From positions 1 through 41,912 of IMG/VR virus record IMGVR_UViG_3300032212_000043: a stretch of 41,912 nt of DNA; one strand, written 5' to 3'. A program made the position numbers and the translations under genes. Below the pieces are notes generated by a model. That model did no database searches. It was not told the origin of the DNA and was given only the letters and a program-made list of their open reading frames with translations. Below are positions 128 through 41,912 of this stretch, piece by piece (position 1 is the stretch's first letter; each line of letters begins with the position of its first letter). This stretch comes from a virus (lineage: Duplodnaviria > Caudoviricetes).

Positions 128-217
128 GGTAGCGACCCGATAGGTGCGCCCTCCCCACGTCAGGTCCAGGCACCAGACCAGCTCCGCGCCCTCTGTATCG
201 GTGAACCGCCGGGGCAC
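1..217 (-). CDS. 5' part of tail-tip hub/Tal-like protein (continues across the junction into 41912..40344; about 552 aa in total)
   Basis: GTG at 217 overlaps the TAG of the upstream gene. It reads MPRRFTDTEGAELVWCLDLTWGGRTYRVATQPLHLTLVDGSEVAYL, in frame with ORF 40344..41891. Confidence 0.85.
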   Translation of the reverse strand, partial: MPRRFTDTEGAELVWCLDLTWGGRTYRVATQPLHLTLVDGSEVAYLDGMSDPDVIDEVSREGVHESDSVPLA

Positions 218-3200
218 TATCGCACCTCCCGAACGATCACTGTGGCGATGCGGAATATCTCCCCGGTGTCAGGGTCGCACTCCTCACCGAGCACGCCTTC
301 AACCTGCACCTCACTGTCCAACGTGCCGAGCATGAACGCATCGGAGAATCGATAGTGTCTCGTGTCGCCGTTCAGCGCGATGCAGGGGAAGTAGGTCAGG
401 GCATCACGGGCACCGAGGTTCTCCAAGATGCCCCGCAATGACATCGGCGGGTCTTTCTGAGCGATGTTGGCCAGGTTGCCGGATGTCGCGCTGCTCTTGA
501 TGTAGTCGGGGTCAGAGCCGGTCCCCTGGAGCTGCGTGATGTCGATGGGGTCAGGCCATGCGATGCGCAGGATTCTCCCGGCTGGCCCTGCCCTGCGTGT
601 GCGCTGCGTTCCGCTGACGGTGCGCTGTGTGAGGTCTCCAGAGGACGATGCAATCACCCGGCCCCATCCGTACTGCGTGCCGAACACGAACACCCGCCCC
701 ATGGAGAAGTGCCCGATTCTCAGATCCAGGTCTGCCGTCTTCTGGGCGTCGATGCGCAGCGCCCAACCCCCGCCCGTCTCGCCTGCGGTATGGAACGTTG
801 TGGAGAACTTGTCGGGTATGAGGGTCACCACCGAGGATGTCGGCTCGCCGCCGTCGATGCCCGTGAGGAAAAAGACGGGCTTGGCACCGCTGATGTTGCT
901 GGCCAGCGTCCCGGCGGTGTTGCCAGTGATCCGGCGGAACGTCGTGCCCATCTTGACGGTCCACCCCGCGCACTCATTCTCGCGGTAGTAGCGCCCGCTG
1001 GATGTGGTGGGGAGGGACGGCACAATCAACTCGCTACCACGGCGAGTCAGGGAGAACGCCGTGGTAAACCCGTTGCTGATGGTGGCTACAGAGACCCATG
1101 CATTGGTGCCTGTGTCCCATCGCTCGATACTGCCGGACGTCCAGTTCACCCCGGCGAATGTCGCATAGCACATTGTTGAGCCCAGCCCCTGCTCCTCGCT
1201 GCCGAAGGTAGTCGCATCGGCGTTGAGCACGAAGGGGATCAACTGCTCCGGGGTGTCGCCAGAGGTGACCGCGACTGACCGCCAGGGGGTGCGGGGGGAT
1301 GGGCTTTCCCGATGGAAGATGCGCGCGATGGGGTGCTCATAGGCGGTGTCGATGTTGAACGTGTCGCCCTCCATCGCAGACCCGTCGACGGCGACCAGCC
1401 GCACGCCATCATCGATGCCAATGGTCTGACCCCGGCGTGAGAGGGTGCGCCCAAACAGGTCGTCCGGGTTGGTGAACCCTCCACCAAGGGCGCCGTTCAC
1501 CGATGCGCCAGCCATGGCGTGGACTTCGTGAATGTCGTAGTCAGCGGTGCTGGTGGCGATGGAGCCCCACACGACGACGTCCGTGGAGCCACCGCCCGCC
1601 GTCAGGCTGTGCCCCTCGATGGCGGGCGTCCACTCTCGGTCCGACTTGCTGTCCAGCGCCCTGAACCAGACGGACAGCTCGCCGCCCGCGATCGCAGCGA
1701 GGACATCAATCCCTCCGCTCGGGGCTACAGAGGTCTTGTCGGTGCCGATTTGTGCTCCGGCGATGTCGTCCTGCATGCGGAATCCAGCCGTGGTGAACCG
1801 GATGTACACGTCATAGTGGGTGCCGCCGTCCGCGCTGCGCAGGTTCAGTGCGATCCCATTGGTGGTCAGTGATCCGCCGCTGTTGACCGTCAGTGCCATG
1901 CGCGCCACGATTCCCTGCGCAACCGTGCTGGCCAGGGTCATGGTCGTGTATTTGTTGTTTGCGGACGTGGCGCGATTCAGCAGACCGTCTGTGGTGATGC
2001 TGTCGGTGCCTGCTCCGGTCGTGGTCAGGCTGGAGATGTTCGCCGGAAGCTCAAACGGCAGGTAGCTCTCCGTCCACGATGAGCGCTGGTATGCCCGGGG
2101 GTAGGAGATGGGCGCCGGCAGATTGACCGTGGTTGCTCCGCCGAGGAACAGGGCAGAGAGGGTCGTGGATGTGGTCACGTCGGTGGTGTTCAGGCCGATC
2201 AGGATCTGCCGCCCACGGTGAGAGACGCCCACGAAATCAGAGAGGTGGGTGGATGCGTCTCCGCTGTAGTAGACGAGCGCACCGGCTGCGTCTGTGCCGT
2301 CGCTGTCTCCGTTGCCGGTGTACAGCCAGTTCAGCCCGCCATCTGTGGAGCGGGCCAGGAACACACCGCCCTCATTTGTTGCCGTGGCTGACGTCAGACG
2401 CCATGCGCCCTGAATGGTGCCATCCTCATCGACCCACACCGTGCCGTCGCCATCGGTGACTTGCTGGTTGGTGGTTGTGTCGTACTCGAAGACCCGGCCA
2501 TTGGTGCCGCTGCCAGACTCACTGAAAGAGAACACGCCGGCTGATGCCTCAAACGCGGTCGTCACTCGGGTGACAATCGAGGACTGAGCCGAGGGCAAGG
2601 CAACCCGATACATGTAGTTCGCGGTTGGCAACTGCGCGATTGTGGAGGGCCAGAACACCGTGAGGACGCCGTCGATTTCCTTCACTGAATGGAAAGCAAA
2701 GACGTTGGTGTCCCCGGCGTCAAAGTCGATGATCTGGATGGGTGCCGCGAGTGAGAACCGGGCCGCACGGCTCACGCTGAACCACTGCGCAACCTGATCC
2801 CGGGGTTCGGCTGAAACAGTGGTGTTGTTGGAGATGACATGCGCCACCAGCAGGCACTGACCACCACTGAACGCCATGCGCAGCCGCCCAGCCTCATACC
2901 CACTGGCGCCACCACCCGGCGTACCGGAGATGTCCAGACCGGTCTCCAGCGCGTAGGAGGAGACGACCGTCCACGTGACCCCATCCTTTGAGCGGTGGGT
3001 GCGGACCTGTGCGAGACTGGCCCCGGTGTCGTAGATCCAGTGCGCGATGTACAGGTATCCATCGCGCCTGTTGTGCGTGATGGCTGGATGGTATCCGTCG
3101 GTCGGGCTGGTGGTGTCCGTGTGGACCACAGAGGACGTCCACGTGCCGTCTGACGGGTCGTAGACGGCCACCTCGACATTGTACGCGGTGGGGCCGGTGG

Positions 3201-3618
3201 CTTGCCGCTGGTAGACAACGGCGATCTTGTCTGTGCGGTCGGTGTCGTAGAAGGCGCATGCGTCCGGGTCTGCCAGCGCTGTGGTCGCGGCTGCGGCTGT
3301 GGTTCGGATGACCTGCCATGCGCTGGTCTGCTGGACATCACAGCCCCGCCAGTCGTCGTCCCCTTCGTACTGGTAGATGACCTCGGCGCCACCCGGCTGC
3401 ACGAACCCGGCCTGGCTCACCTTGACGCGCAGTTCCTTCGATGCCGACTGTGTCCCGCTCGCTTCCAACGCCAGCGTGTAAGAGCCCTGCGGCACCGGCT
3501 CACCGGATGTCGGCCCCTGCTGCGTGTATGTCGCTTTGTCCGCCCACAGATGGGAGGGGGTGAACGGGTAGGGGATGCCAAAGCCGCGCAGGGCGGTACC
3601 GGTAACGTCATCTGCCAT
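217..3618 (-). CDS. Large tail-tip protein with Asp-box/BNR beta-propeller (sialidase-like) region; probable decorated distal tail protein
   Basis: 1133 aa, Thr/Gly/Ser-rich. Asp-box motifs RSKDGVTW and RSTDGGLNW. Follows the tape measure gene. Confidence 0.75.
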   Translation of the reverse strand: MADDVTGTALRGFGIPYPFTPSHLWADKATYTQQGPTSGEPVPQGSYTLALEASGTQSASKELRVKVSQAGFVQPGGAEVIYQYEGDDDWRGCDVQQTSAWQVIRTTAAAATTALADPDACAFYDTDRTDKIAVVYQRQATGPTAYNVEVAVYDPSDGTWTSSVVHTDTTSPTDGYHPAITHNRRDGYLYIAHWIYDTGASLAQVRTHRSKDGVTWTVVSSYALETGLDISGTPGGGASGYEAGRLRMAFSGGQCLLVAHVISNNTTVSAEPRDQVAQWFSVSRAARFSLAAPIQIIDFDAGDTNVFAFHSVKEIDGVLTVFWPSTIAQLPTANYMYRVALPSAQSSIVTRVTTAFEASAGVFSFSESGSGTNGRVFEYDTTTNQQVTDGDGTVWVDEDGTIQGAWRLTSATATNEGGVFLARSTDGGLNWLYTGNGDSDGTDAAGALVYYSGDASTHLSDFVGVSHRGRQILIGLNTTDVTTSTTLSALFLGGATTVNLPAPISYPRAYQRSSWTESYLPFELPANISSLTTTGAGTDSITTDGLLNRATSANNKYTTMTLASTVAQGIVARMALTVNSGGSLTTNGIALNLRSADGGTHYDVYIRFTTAGFRMQDDIAGAQIGTDKTSVAPSGGIDVLAAIAGGELSVWFRALDSKSDREWTPAIEGHSLTAGGGSTDVVVWGSIATSTADYDIHEVHAMAGASVNGALGGGFTNPDDLFGRTLSRRGQTIGIDDGVRLVAVDGSAMEGDTFNIDTAYEHPIARIFHRESPSPRTPWRSVAVTSGDTPEQLIPFVLNADATTFGSEEQGLGSTMCYATFAGVNWTSGSIERWDTGTNAWVSVATISNGFTTAFSLTRRGSELIVPSLPTTSSGRYYRENECAGWTVKMGTTFRRITGNTAGTLASNISGAKPVFFLTGIDGGEPTSSVVTLIPDKFSTTFHTAGETGGGWALRIDAQKTADLDLRIGHFSMGRVFVFGTQYGWGRVIASSSGDLTQRTVSGTQRTRRAGPAGRILRIAWPDPIDITQLQGTGSDPDYIKSSATSGNLANIAQKDPPMSLRGILENLGARDALTYFPCIALNGDTRHYRFSDAFMLGTLDSEVQVEGVLGEECDPDTGEIFRIATVIVREVR

Positions 3619-26925: not shown

Positions 26926-27038
26926 GTCGTTACACCAAAATGGTGGTCGGCAATATCCACAGCGGCTTGCCACGAATGTCCTTCGGACATCAAGCGCTGC
27001 ACCATGTACGCGTGAGCCTCAAGATCTCTGTCTTTCAT
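26919..27038 (-). CDS. 39-aa hypothetical protein
   Basis: ATG at 27038 overlaps the TGA of the MTase catalytic frame. AGGAAG SD. Confidence 0.55.
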   Translation of the reverse strand: MKDRDLEAHAYMVQRLMSEGHSWQAAVDIADHHFGVTTW

Positions 27039-27769
27039 TGGGCTTCCTGTTTGACGATATGAGTACCAATCCATCGACCGATCACGGCTCCGCATTGGGG
27101 AACAACGGCATTCCCGAGGGCTTTGAGTCGGTCGCGGTCGTGGGGCTGTCGTGGTCGAGTTCGGGGAGGCTCCCAGGCGTGCTGTGGTCCCGGAGGGGCG
27201 GGCCATCGGTGCAGGTCCAGCCGGGAGGGAAGCCCATAAGACTCTCGACCCAATCCGGATTGAGCCTGCCCCCGCTGCCGGGTTCGATGGGCTCGGTAGG
27301 CTGACCCCGTCGCTGTCCCGGCTTGCTTGAGCCTTTGTGGTCGGTGGCTGAGGGGGTCGGCAGGGCGCGTTTCGCCTCGACGGCCAGAACGCGCCCAGCC
27401 CCGTTCCCGTTCCCGTTCTTGTGCAGAGCCTTTAGACGAGCTCTGCGCTTGTCGAATGACGCCGGGCTCTCCGCATAGTTGAACGCGCTGGCGACCGGGG
27501 TCGGCCAGCCAGCAGACGCAGAACCACCGCTCCCGCCGATGGGGCGCGCCCACCTCTGATGCTCGCAGACCTCCCCAGCGCGCATCATACCCGAGATCGG
27601 CCATGGTCCCGAGTACGGCTCCCAGCCCCCGACCAGTGATCGCTGGGACGTTCTCCATGACAACGATTCGGGGTCGTAGCTCGCGAACGATCCGGGCCAT
27701 CTCGAAAAACAATCCGGACTTCTCACCTGCCAGTCCGGCTCCGTTGCCGGCGAGTGAAATGTCCTGGCA
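27035..27769 (-). CDS. C5 DNA methyltransferase, catalytic C-terminal part (motifs IV, VI, VII, VIII, X); no good start of its own
   Basis: (P)CQDISLAG, MENV, GAPHRRERWF and RLKALGNAVVPQ. Confidence 0.9.
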   Translation of the reverse strand, partial: CQDISLAGNGAGLAGEKSGLFFEMARIVRELRPRIVVMENVPAITGRGLGAVLGTMADLGYDARWGGLRASEVGAPHRRERWFCVCWLADPGRQRVQLCGEPGVIRQAQSSSKGSAQERERERGWARSGRRGETRPADPLSHRPQRLKQAGTATGSAYRAHRTRQRGQAQSGLGRESYGLPSRLDLHRWPAPPGPQHAWEPPRTRPRQPHDRDRLKALGNAVVPQCGAVIGRWIGTHIVKQEAQ

Positions 27770-28449
27770 GGGCTTACCGGGAACCCGCCACAAATCATGT
27801 CGACTTGCGCGAGTTCCCTTTCACCCCCCTTCGGCACTGCCGTGTTGATGGTGTGCCATGCATGGTGACAGCCTTTGCAGAGCCATCGAACCTTGAGCGG
27901 GTGGTTGTAGTCGTCGTGGTGCGCCTGGATGGGGGCGCGACCATCGGAGTACTGCACGCCCGGACCTCTGCACTCCTCGCAGATGGAAGGGCGCTTGAGC
28001 CTGCCCTGCCTGACCGCGACCTCGACGGCATTGTGCACGCCATCGTCGGCCAGAACACCGCCTCGGTAAAAGTGATTGTCCGACCCGTACCGGCGCTGTG
28101 GGCGCATCTTGGTGCGCCGCTTCAGCAGGCCGTGCATTGACTGCCTGGTCACGCCGTACCGGGGAGCGATGGCTCCGCACGACATGCCGCCCTCGTACAG
28201 GGCCACTGCCTCGACTACCTGCTCCGGTGTGAGTTTCTTGAGCTTCCCAGCCATGGGGCCTCCTACATTTAGAATGTTGTCGTACCGCTGCGCGTCAGGC
28301 CAGTGACGCGCCAGCACCTTTCTGGCGTACTCGTTCTGCTCGACCTGCCAGACGGTCTCTGACGGTACCCCGGCGGACATAAGGCCAGCTTCAAGGCCAT
28401 AGTCCAGCCCTCCTACTCCGGAGAACAGGGAGCCGATTCTAAGGGTCAT
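27082..28449 (-). CDS. C5 methyltransferase N-terminus (motifs I-III) plus inserted HTH-HNH endonuclease, running into the alternative-frame beta subunit (TRD/motif IX)
   Basis: SLFSGVGG; VEQNEYARKVLARHWP; CEEC..AHHDDYNHPLKVRWLCKGCHHAWH; VDMICGGFP; WPTP/LPTP; RLNPDWVESLMGFPPGWT. Confidence 0.9.
   Translation of the reverse strand: MTLRIGSLFSGVGGLDYGLEAGLMSAGVPSETVWQVEQNEYARKVLARHWPDAQRYDNILNVGGPMAGKLKKLTPEQVVEAVALYEGGMSCGAIAPRYGVTRQSMHGLLKRRTKMRPQRRYGSDNHFYRGGVLADDGVHNAVEVAVRQGRLKRPSICEECRGPGVQYSDGRAPIQAHHDDYNHPLKVRWLCKGCHHAWHTINTAVPKGGERELAQVDMICGGFPVSPARTFHSPATEPDWQVRSPDCFSRWPGSFASYDPESLSWRTSQRSLVGGWEPYSGPWPISGMMRAGEVCEHQRWARPIGGSGGSASAGWPTPVASAFNYAESPASFDKRRARLKALHKNGNGNGAGRVLAVEAKRALPTPSATDHKGSSKPGQRRGQPTEPIEPGSGGRLNPDWVESLMGFPPGWTCTDGPPLRDHSTPGSLPELDHDSPTTATDSKPSGMPLFPNAEP
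27817..28264 (-). mobile_element. In-frame HNH homing-endonuclease-like insert with its own SD and ATG
   Basis: AGGAGG at 28264-28259 and ATG at 28254. HTH followed by an HNH Zn-finger. No intein termini. Confidence 0.7.
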
Positions 28450-28894: not shown

Positions 28895-28982
28895 GGTGTT
28901 GTCCTCGGTGGGGTTGGTTCGTCTCCCCACACCAACAACATAAAGCACCGGTGTTCTACCGTCAATAGAACACCGGTGCTTT
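28891..28982 (-). promoter_or_regulatory. Promoter TTGACG-17-TATGTT with a 17-bp inverted-repeat operator and conserved hairpin leader (copy 1)
   Basis: IR arms at 28942-28958 and 28966-28982 flank the -35 box. The leader is 41/44 identical to 31323-31366. Confidence 0.85.
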
Positions 28983-35991: not shown

Positions 35992-36143
35992 AAGGTGCGC
36001 CCCGGGCGGGTTTGAATCCGCAACCAGTCATCTTTCAGGCCCTACTTGATGATCTGGTCAGGGCTGGGTCCAGGATCGCTTGTCAGGTTCACATGGCCGT
36101 GCTCCCCTGCTCGCTATCCGTCCTCCACCCTCCGGTGCATGAC

Positions 36144-36218
36144 GCCTGCGGGTGAGGGTCGAACTCACGCCTCCCGCTGTTTACACGGTTGTTCTTTCCA
36201 GCTTGAACTACGCACAGA
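36144..36218 (-). tRNA. Degenerate tRNA (anticodon position reads AAA; bulged acceptor stem)
   Basis: U8A9, D-arm GTTC/GAAC with TGG loop, and T-arm GTGAG-TTCGACC-CTCAC. Weak anticodon stem, no CCA. Confidence 0.55.
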
Positions 36219-36234
36219 CCCTCAGACTGTAGCC

Positions 36235-40343: not shown

Positions 40344-41912
40344 CTATGCTCCTGTTTTCTTGAGACTGCTGATTCGGATCGGGTCGTCGTCCAGTGCGAA
40401 GATGAAATCCCACCCCGCCCCGTTCCAGCGCCTGCTCAGCACGGTGGCCAGAAACGTCCTGTACAGGCTCGTCGACTCCAGCCGGAACTGCACGCCGGGA
40501 GCCAGCCATGCAAACCGCCGGTGTGCGCTGTAGGCACGCTCAGCGTAGCCAAATCCCATGACCTGCACGCGCTCCCGAGCCACCAGACCCGCGCTCGCCT
40601 CGTCATACAGCCAGTCAAGCTCAATCACCTCAGACTGAACCACGGTGCGGTCGGTCGTGGTCGTCCAGCGCCCCACGGACAGCTCCGCGTACTCATCGCT
40701 GAACACCTCGGGGTCGTCCGGGTCGGGGTCAGCCTGCACGGTCACAGTGCGTTTGTAGTCGCCGGTTCGGGCACGGGGAGCGAATCGGATGGTGCACCGG
40801 TTGACCACCTCAGAGAGCCGGGTCTGTGTCACCACAGCGCTGTCGGGCTCCATGTCGGTCCCCTCGACCACCGTGCGCAGCCCCTCTGCGTCGGGCGTGT
40901 TGAGCAGTCGCGGCTGTGGGTAGACGCCATCAGGGCCGGTGCGGATCTCCGTCAGGAGCGGGTCAAGCAGGCGCGTCACGAATGACAGCGGCTTGAGGGT
41001 GGGTGTGGTGATGTACGTGGATATCTTCACCCGGTCGAGTGTGCCGGCCTCGATGAGCCACCGGGGGATGTCCACCGGGCGGGCGGATCGCAGGAGCGCC
41101 CATGCGCACACGCTGCCCACACCGCTGAGCAGGGTACCGGACTGGAACGGAGAAGCGAGACCGCCCCCGTCATTCCAGCACACCCAAAACTCTGCGCTGG
41201 AATTGTCAATGGACCCGCTGTGGATGTCGACGTAGCTGTACACCTGACCGAGCCCATCCACATCGGCCTGAACGGTAAATGTGTCGCTGGTTCGGTCTGC
41301 GTCGAAGATGGTGACCGTCGTAGCCTCAACCTCATGCCCTGCGATCAAGAGCAATTCATAGTGACTCGGTGAGCCGTGAGTTGAGATGGGATAGGCCGGG
41401 GAGCCACTGGTGGTCGATGCGGTGCCGTCTGCTTTGTTGAACACGCCGGGGGTGCCGAGCACAATCGGATAGACCTTGCCGATCATCTCCGACGGTGCGC
41501 CCGAGTGCGTCGTCTCGTTGATCACCATCGACTCGTCCAGCAGGTAGACGTTCTCGTCCGCTGGAGCAGCCTCAAGGGTGAAGGTCAGGAACGATACGGG
41601 CCGGGTGGGGTCGGCGTAGACAGGACGGGAGAGGCGTCCTGTGATGTACCTGAACCGCTCCGGGTGAGTCTGGTGTGACTCTCCGGTCTGCTCGGAGACG
41701 AACACGGCGAACAGCTCCCCGCGTGCCTGCTCCAGCCGGAAACCCCGGGCGATGCGCTCCGCGACGTCCACGCCATCCAGGTAGACAGCCAGCGGCACGC
41801 TGTCACTCTCATGTACACCCTCACGGCTGACCTCATCGATCACGTCAGGGTCTGACATGCCATCCAGATAGGCGACCTCTGAACCGTCCACGAGGGTCAG
41901 GTGCAGCGGCTG
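40344..41912 (-). CDS. Tail-tip hub/Tal-like protein (3' part; starts at 217 across the junction)
   Basis: GKVYPIVLG motif. The frame stays open to the contig end. Confidence 0.8.
   Translation of the reverse strand, partial: QPLHLTLVDGSEVAYLDGMSDPDVIDEVSREGVHESDSVPLAVYLDGVDVAERIARGFRLEQARGELFAVFVSEQTGESHQTHPERFRYITGRLSRPVYADPTRPVSFLTFTLEAAPADENVYLLDESMVINETTHSGAPSEMIGKVYPIVLGTPGVFNKADGTASTTSGSPAYPISTHGSPSHYELLLIAGHEVEATTVTIFDADRTSDTFTVQADVDGLGQVYSYVDIHSGSIDNSSAEFWVCWNDGGGLASPFQSGTLLSGVGSVCAWALLRSARPVDIPRWLIEAGTLDRVKISTYITTPTLKPLSFVTRLLDPLLTEIRTGPDGVYPQPRLLNTPDAEGLRTVVEGTDMEPDSAVVTQTRLSEVVNRCTIRFAPRARTGDYKRTVTVQADPDPDDPEVFSDEYAELSVGRWTTTTDRTVVQSEVIELDWLYDEASAGLVARERVQVMGFGYAERAYSAHRRFAWLAPGVQFRLESTSLYRTFLATVLSRRWNGAGWDFIFALDDDPIRISSLKKTGA
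41786..41912. repeat. Terminal direct repeat (right copy)
   Basis: Identical to 1-127. Confidence 0.95.

Follow-up and report, generated by a model that had tools for sequence, protein, structure and literature searches.

An eight-base gap separating the catalytic Pro codon from the Cys codon in a phage C5 cytosine methyltransferase gene, and its predicted reading by short translational bypass

The locus described here raises the question of how ribosomes could reach the catalytic half of a DNA methyltransferase when the Pro codon and the Cys codon of the catalytic motif lie in different frames. The window, by which we mean the whole stretch of DNA analysed (41 912 nucleotides), is a complete phage record of 41.9 kb with direct terminal repeats; it encodes terminase, portal, capsid, tape-measure and DnaB-like proteins and one PF00145 gene, detected as two pieces, which is the sole cytosine DNA-methylase gene of the phage. 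This is a phage C5 cytosine methyltransferase gene interrupted by an 8-base gap between the catalytic-motif Pro and Cys codons. Ribosomes likely hop the gap, because more than 100 relatives have 6–10 extra bases in the corresponding position, preceded by a conserved RNA hairpin. The features of the gene are as follows.

28255–28449, minus strand: N-terminal part of the C5 DNA methyltransferase with motifs I–III (ORF residues 1–65; PF00145 residues 4–56; phrog_363; profile matches to the M.HhaI N-terminus)
28259–28264, minus strand: AGGAGG, 4 nt 5' of the internal ATG (28254) that opens the HTH–HNH insert; possible independent start judged from sequence (relatives are annotated from a MAGKL start, 157–159 aa)
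27838–28254, minus strand: in-frame insert separating motifs III and IV, with an HTH and a zinc-binding HNH-type endonuclease; putative homing endonuclease (HTH_7; phrog_2340 endonuclease, E 1.9e-18; phrog_8446 HNH; invariant CxxC, HHD-Y and WLCxxxH)
27821–27831, minus strand: Shine–Dalgarno (SD)-like element AAGGGGGGTGA just 5' of the hairpin, of uncertain role; no motif IX-frame start follows it here
27779–27818, minus strand: conserved 5' hairpin of 17 bp with one bulge; its 3' arm comprises the G-G-F-P codons and ends inside the take-off codon
27791–27793, minus strand: TTG in the Cys frame, within the 3' arm of the hairpin; rival start, unconserved
27778–27780, minus strand: predicted take-off codon CCG (Pro), from sequence and family alignment
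27770–27777, minus strand: 8-nt coding gap GTAAGCCC with A-site codon GTA and predicted landing codon CCC (27772–27770), from sequence, GTA usage and landing-codon pattern
27035–27769, minus strand: catalytic half, from Cys through motifs IV–VIII and X (CQDIS, ENV, HRRER, LGNAVV; PF00145, E 5.6e-24; phrog_363, E 3.5e-40)
27082–27768, minus strand: frame of motif IX (the 'beta subunit'), which overlaps the catalytic half and in this gene runs on from frame 0 (phrog_1008 DNA methyltransferase, E 1.8e-23; 41% identity to P0125 over its full length)

The 455-residue frame-0 ORF (28449–27082, minus strand) contains motifs I–III, the HTH and HNH-type insert, DMICGGFP and then the motif IX-bearing sequence. 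On the minus strand the junction reads GGC GGG TTC CCG / GTAAGCCC / TGC CAG GAC, with CCG at 27780–27778, the extra bases at 27777–27770, CCC at 27772–27770 and TGC at 27769–27767. Exactly eight bases thus lie between CCG and TGC, as the preliminary description of this locus had stated, and the take-off and landing codons that it had named, CCG and CCC, are indeed synonymous Pro codons. Beyond the junction frame 0 continues without a stop as GGFP-VSPART; CQD sits in a separate frame with a TTG at 27793, and the catalytic half is accessible from frame 0 solely via a hop or a shift. The A-site codon GTA is the rarest Val codon of the phage (16 occurrences among the 6140 codons of 14 ORFs, a count in which host tRNA supply has no part). 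An AlphaFold model has a mean pLDDT of 81 and a pTM of 0.44, and its structure matches are to methyltransferase and Rossmann folds; the structure search with this model returned no HNH structure.

A 24.6-kb contig of ∼58× depth crosses the 8-nt gap with no variants, indels or joints; it is not independent support, since the same run is possibly the source of the window. Assembly error as the cause of the gap is ruled out by this contig together with the existence of the gap family described below. Elsewhere in the window, a 19-bp inverted repeat lies over a weak sigma-70-like site (28942–28982, minus strand) upstream of the methylase region and is a possible operator or terminator, ARAGORN predicts a tRNA-Phe whose anticodon would be the unusual AAA (36143–36219, minus strand) that may be a pseudo-tRNA or a false call, and two large ORFs of 1133 and 515 aa (217–3618 and 40344–41891, minus strand) have no Pfam or PHROG match.

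The family of gap sites and the linked endonuclease

A protein search with the N-terminal 224 residues as query gave 437 matches. Among the best 120 of these, all homologues, [GA]GFP (GGFP or AGFP) is the exact C-terminal end in 111 and none reads FPCQ. Proteins longer than 392 aa fell outside the range of this search, which was therefore extended to them: HNH is present in seven of 26 longer homologues besides the query, and all seven read from GGFP into the motif IX frame. The same passage from GGFP into motif IX occurs in ten other proteins, whose sequences imply gaps of 5, 8 or 11 nt and always place P, R or H at the landing position.

DNA was scanned with TTCCC and the downstream motif fixed and the gap left free. 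The first set comprised 51 unique gap sites, from which one (L362) was removed as not belonging to a methylase, leaving 50 including the window copy. A hold-out scan (CQP subtype), fetched after the pattern had been noted, gave 114 loci, of which 20 were rejected as lacking the GGFP context and 94 were accepted, 68 of them unique and new. The pooled family thus contains 118 non-redundant sites, a count that overstates their independence because the sites are related; all share the gap at the same motif IV codon, where it separates two frames of one protein. The controls were 120 unique intact sites, almost all of them drawn from a ∼7800-site sample. For the CQD pattern, gap sites make up about half a percent of viral sites (42 real among 46, versus ∼7800). 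All gap sites derive from uncultured phages or MAGs, those in named MAG records being assigned to Anaerolineaceae, Betaproteobacteria, Bacillota, Saccharibacteria, Alcaligenaceae and Ignavibacteriaceae; no cultured phage with an HNH-fused methylase gene was found in 50 697 records. A scan of genome contigs returned mostly noise (seven real sites in 120 matches), and a metagenome scan for stop-less gaps gave three matches, namely the window contig, a duplicate of L068 and one that was not accepted. Searches by blastn with a related site and with the HNH DNA as queries gave partial or no matches.

The catalytic half is retained at these sites. ENV is open in the Cys frame at 37/45 sites of the first set and 53/53 of the hold-out, compared with 46/78 intact sites by the same test, and identities at the three codon positions are 0.71/0.81/0.45 for gap sites versus 0.70/0.79/0.41 for intact sites. 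The overlapping motif IX frame is an ordinary property of such genes, being found in 45 of the 120 intact controls.

The nuclease is tied to the gap. HNH lies in frame upstream at 23/50 and 13/68 gap sites, compared with none of the 120 intact sites; it is free-standing just upstream in L012, L046 and L047 and out of frame in L196. Conversely, an alignment of the HNH domain found 59 loci, 44 of which have the gap (42 by script, 34 of them unique, and L535 and L536 by eye). Pro-Cys is intact at two (L541 and L545), an odd one (L544, near 3240) reads GGFH-stop-PCQ, and for the remaining 12 either the methylase motif IV was not found nearby or the HNH motif is absent. In a quick tree, built on 104 columns from the catalytic halves of 39 gap and 66 intact sites, the gap sites are scattered among the intact ones; the 20 gap changes on this tree, at least three of them forced, cannot count origins and fit lateral spread or repeated loss. 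The gap is likely to have spread together with the putative HTH–HNH homing endonuclease and may shield the methylase gene from being cut again by it. In gene 60 with MobA the gap protects against re-nicking (gene 60 preprints on bioRxiv).

Hairpin and codon pattern at the gap

The hairpin upstream of the gap (27818–27779) has z scores of −4.0 and −4.4 and dominates the ensemble, with a probability of 1.0 for its basal pairs. When the 60 nt ending at the Pro codon are folded, z is below −2 at 44/50 and 60/68 gap sites (104/118) versus 6/120 intact sites; eight of the 68 hold-out sites are without a significant hairpin. RNAalifold on a MAFFT alignment found just two pairs, because the hairpins differ in length and their 5' arms are misaligned, and covariation was therefore tested with the 5' arm located in each sequence by an anchor and the test column left out (13 of 50 sites lacked a unique anchor). 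The partner of the Gly wobble base is Watson–Crick at all 37 anchorable sites (22 C-G and 15 G-C) compared with 4/31 intact sites, and in the hold-out this pair is Watson–Crick at 55/57 sites and G·U at the other two.

A different hairpin, spanning the gap, had been put forward earlier for this site. It folds as described, yet with a z of −1.1 it is no better than shuffled sequences; it is not enriched in the family (z below −2 at 1/50 sites) and is outcompeted by the upstream hairpin, which shares its 5' arm. A 3' stimulator is not enriched either (z below −2 at 1/49 family sites).

An SD-like element precedes the hairpin by 3–13 nt at 25/50 sites of the first set versus 4/120 intact sites, and more weakly in the hold-out (15/68). 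It may have a part in hopping, but at 11/50 sites it is explained by a motif IX-frame start that follows it, and at 6/50 such a start lies within the gap. The spacing from SD to landing codon shows no compensation for gap length. In six gaps of 7 or 10 nt (L002, L042, L043, L058, L063 and L247) a motif IX-frame ATG or GTG overlaps the stop, and the SD with a looped-out hairpin may therefore also restart the motif IX chain.

Among the 118 gaps, 89 are of 6 nt, 13 of 7, three of 8, 11 of 9 and two of 10 nt; 100 are divisible by three, 18 are out of frame and three are 3n+2 long. A stop codon directly follows Pro, in the predicted A site, at 112/118 sites (68/68 in the hold-out), and the other six have the sense codons AGA, CGA, CAA, AGT, TTA and GTA. 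The absence of an in-frame stop after the take-off codon, which the preliminary description had contrasted with T4 gene 60, is thus correct for the window copy but is a minority state (6/118) that makes this copy atypical of its family. In L031 and L062 (also L547), with 9-nt gaps, the sense codon CGA or CAA stands ahead of a stop, so that the pause codon is not immediately 3' of Pro.

The last codon of the gap has a pyrimidine at position 2 at 118/118 sites and pyrimidines at both positions 1 and 2 at 110/118 (68/68 in the hold-out), position 1 being a purine at the other eight. It is CCN at 59 sites, of G·U type (TCN, CTN or TTA) at 51 and ACN or GCN at eight. Its third base equals that of the take-off codon at 58 sites, compared with 34.6 expected (none of 20 000 permutations was as high); a change from CCG at take-off to a final C at landing, as in the window copy, occurs at 5/118. 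Clustering at 70% identity gives 37 groups, of which 32 have the stop, 33 both pyrimidines and all 37 the pyrimidine at position 2. The overlapping frame encodes varied residues at this codon. The pattern is what a tRNA-Pro with two anticodon G bases would accept through G-C and G·U pairs. Landing from CCG on CCC, as predicted for the window copy, would need a broad-reading tRNA-Pro; the enterobacterial tRNA-Pro with a modified UGG anticodon reads both codons. In the window copy a CCT codon one base past CCC, which belongs to the motif IX frame, is a competing landing site. An origin of the gap by duplication of the Pro codon could in part account for the CC-like gap ends, but not for a divergence that is confined mostly to U. 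Self-pairing of the mRNA across the gap, another conceivable cause of the codon pattern, shows no covariation in either of two registers (p 0.81 and 0.33).

Predicted reading of the gap and its alternatives

The gap family is probably read by programmed short translational bypass, and the same reading is also likely, if somewhat less so, for the stop-less window copy. The 118-site family supports the hop from Pro to Pro that had been proposed for this locus, which we infer together with the pause before it and the landing after it. The ribosome would melt the upstream hairpin while reading DMICGGFP, and the peptidyl-tRNA-Pro would then pause on CCG in the P site over a presumably slow A-site codon, a stop in most relatives and the rare GTA here. 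Pro before a stop hinders the release factor (PMC3985003), and in some gene 60 relatives a hungry AGG stands in for the stop (bioRxiv gene 60 preprints). The hairpin would refold behind the ribosome and push it onward to the point where the helix is clear of the E site, 4–9 nt before the landing codon; the tRNA-Pro would re-pair at CCC, eight bases on, and decoding would resume at TGC to give GGFP-CQ and a presumably active methylase.

Ribosomes that do not hop would have different fates. In the relatives with a stop they would terminate and release the N-terminal part with the HNH nuclease, and in the window copy they would carry on into the motif IX frame and make an N-terminal/HNH/motif IX chain. 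With the motif IX frame read by the non-hopping ribosomes, one start could give both chains of an enzyme resembling the two-chain M.EcoHK31I, a design that the sequences of the ten other proteins with implied gaps of 5, 8 or 11 nt imply for them as well. A broader proposal has two parts, and we offer them jointly as a tentative one that may well prove wrong: that, by way of a compact mobile 'hop cassette' (SD, hairpin, Pro, a stop or rare codon and a wobble-matched landing codon), an HNH homing endonuclease is able to reside in the catalytic motif of C5 methylases from phages of several bacterial phyla, with more than 100 natural stop hops as the result, and that in stop-less 3n+2 variants such as the window copy the hop has been co-opted to become a switch by which one start serves both subunits of a two-chain methylase and their ratio is set.

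The strongest alternative accepts hopping in the family but takes the window copy as decayed, an extra G having made CCG-TAA into CCG-GTA-A, so that the product would be mainly an N-terminal/HNH/motif IX fusion with little or no active methylase. The window gap differs by a single base from a stop-type gap that is common (G + TAAGCCC versus TAAGCCG in L363), its third-base change is of the rare type, and the enzyme may be dispensable. However, stop-less 3n+2 gaps recur in L003, in L211 and in the ten proteins that read from GGFP into motif IX, and the window copy has its hairpin, landing CCC and every catalytic motif intact. We therefore give decay of the window copy a small chance of being correct.

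Two readings raised in the preliminary description, a −1 slip and initiation at the TTG at 27793, fit the window copy but not the family. In the slip from CCG to CCC, the product would be GGFP-GKP-CQ, keeping Pro-Cys with three extra residues. TTC CCG would permit P-site re-pairing one base back, an 8-nt gap is compatible with a −1 shift and an SD-like element lies upstream; against this, at most 3/118 sites (the 3n+2 gaps) fit by length, L003 would lose the Pro before Cys, the family has no significant 3' stimulator, and a hairpin refolding behind the ribosome would presumably favor forward movement. A slip in the window copy is improbable on these grounds. Removal of the gap at the RNA level, by a micro-intron, by cleavage and ligation or by skipping of the RNA polymerase, could use the hairpin for recognition and would explain why a conserved hairpin abuts the junction. 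It appears very improbable, as conserved splice ends are absent, the gaps are 6–10 nt long with variable ends, the in-frame stop after Pro and the tRNA-Pro-like gap end are translational signatures, and pairing across the gap does not covary. The Rfam search gave no match at the gathering score and only three sub-threshold chance matches, none convincing. The variable ends, the length of 6–10 nt and the lack of an Rfam match at the gathering score do not fit a self-splicing intron, which would have conserved splice ends and a catalytic RNA core.

Initiation at TTG 27793 would make this a split gene, with the catalytic half starting by itself and assembling with the N-terminal chain; the TTG is in frame, and C5 methyltransferases can work as separate chains (PMC2836561). 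An ATG, GTG or TTG precedes Cys in the Cys frame at 2/118 sites only, so that separate initiation cannot supply the catalytic half in the family. In addition, among the 36 in-frame gaps in the first set, 35 have just one codon between the stop and Cys, and the TTG here lies inside the hairpin, ∼28 nt from the SD-like element; a split gene is therefore scarcely to be expected. Stop readthrough or a reassigned genetic code, to which the 100/118 gaps that are multiples of three would conform, can practically be set aside for the family, since all three stops are used, 18 gaps break the frame, two stops occur in several 9-nt gaps and Leu, Ser, Thr or Ala would often be placed before the catalytic Cys, and it is inapplicable to the window copy, which has no stop.

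Comparison with known systems

To our knowledge, the established natural cases of bypassing are those of T4 gene 60 with its relatives and the byps of yeast mitochondria, and that of phiHau3 has support. In the literature searched, which covered few subscription papers, we found no published report of bypass in C5 methyltransferases. Programmed bypassing of the methylase gaps, if correct, would have wider consequences. A 60-nt element with natural variants at more than 100 sites would form a ready mutational series that bears on whether a hairpin behind the ribosome suffices for a hop, on the tolerance of landing mismatches and on the existence of natural stop hops. Function may be retained by many phage methylases whose annotation is that of a truncated 'hypothetical' or 'YlxM-like' protein, and the linkage points to micro-bypass as a further route, besides introns and inteins, by which homing endonucleases occupy conserved sites.

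Synthetic 'stop hops' in E. coli, in which nine nucleotides yield one amino acid, match the 89 six-base gaps, although they are constructs of low efficiency that lack stimulators (PMC5009743). Natural in-frame stop hopping was unknown according to the same review by Atkins et al. (2016), and the 89 in-frame sites are candidates for natural cases of this kind. M.EcoHK31I likewise has motifs I–VIII and X in one frame and motif IX in an overlapping frame; its motif IX chain, however, has its own start (PMC2836561), whereas here motif IX forms one chain with the N-terminal/HNH part and a hop would be needed to make the catalytic chain.

In the large terminase of the Streptomyces phage phiHau3, 10-nt bypasses have been described with a proposed 5' stem-loop and flanking SD; for site 1, mass spectrometry of a UAA variant in E. 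coli demonstrated the bypass (PMC10732093). The methylase sites resemble this system in their short gap, presumably slow A-site codon, synonymous landing codon and 5' hairpin with SD. Site 2 of the phiHau3 terminase (JX182369, L559:2864–2934), when folded here, has a strong hairpin that ends inside the take-off codon, as do the methylase sites, and an SD-like stretch upstream, with a gap of 10 nt and synonymous landing; at site 1 the hairpin ends 7 nt earlier. The gene and the tRNA are different, and the phiHau3 bypass is UUA-triggered and of proposed regulatory function, in contrast to the GTA of the window copy and a family in which TTA occurs at 1/118 sites. More than 100 methylase sites compare with three genes there, and mismatched landing codons are common among the former.

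T4 gene 60 shares with the methylase sites a stop or rare codon after take-off, a landing codon for the same tRNA, a 5' stem-loop as the proposed driver and linkage to an HNH homing endonuclease, putative here, which can be lost while the gap stays (bioRxiv 10.1101/2022.08.31.505936 and 10.1101/2024.12.09.627546). The methylase gaps differ in their length of 6–10 nt (eight here) versus ∼50, in residing in a PF00145 methyltransferase rather than a topoisomerase II large subunit, in the absence of a 3' barrier and of a conserved take-off stem-loop with the take-off codon in its 5' side (z below −2 at 1/50 sites), in an SD that is 5' of the hairpin rather than in the gap, in an endonuclease that is usually fused in frame rather than splitting the gene, and in a landing that often involves a G·U-type mismatch. 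Since gene, gap and signals differ, the methylase sites belong neither to the phiHau3 class nor to that of gene 60.
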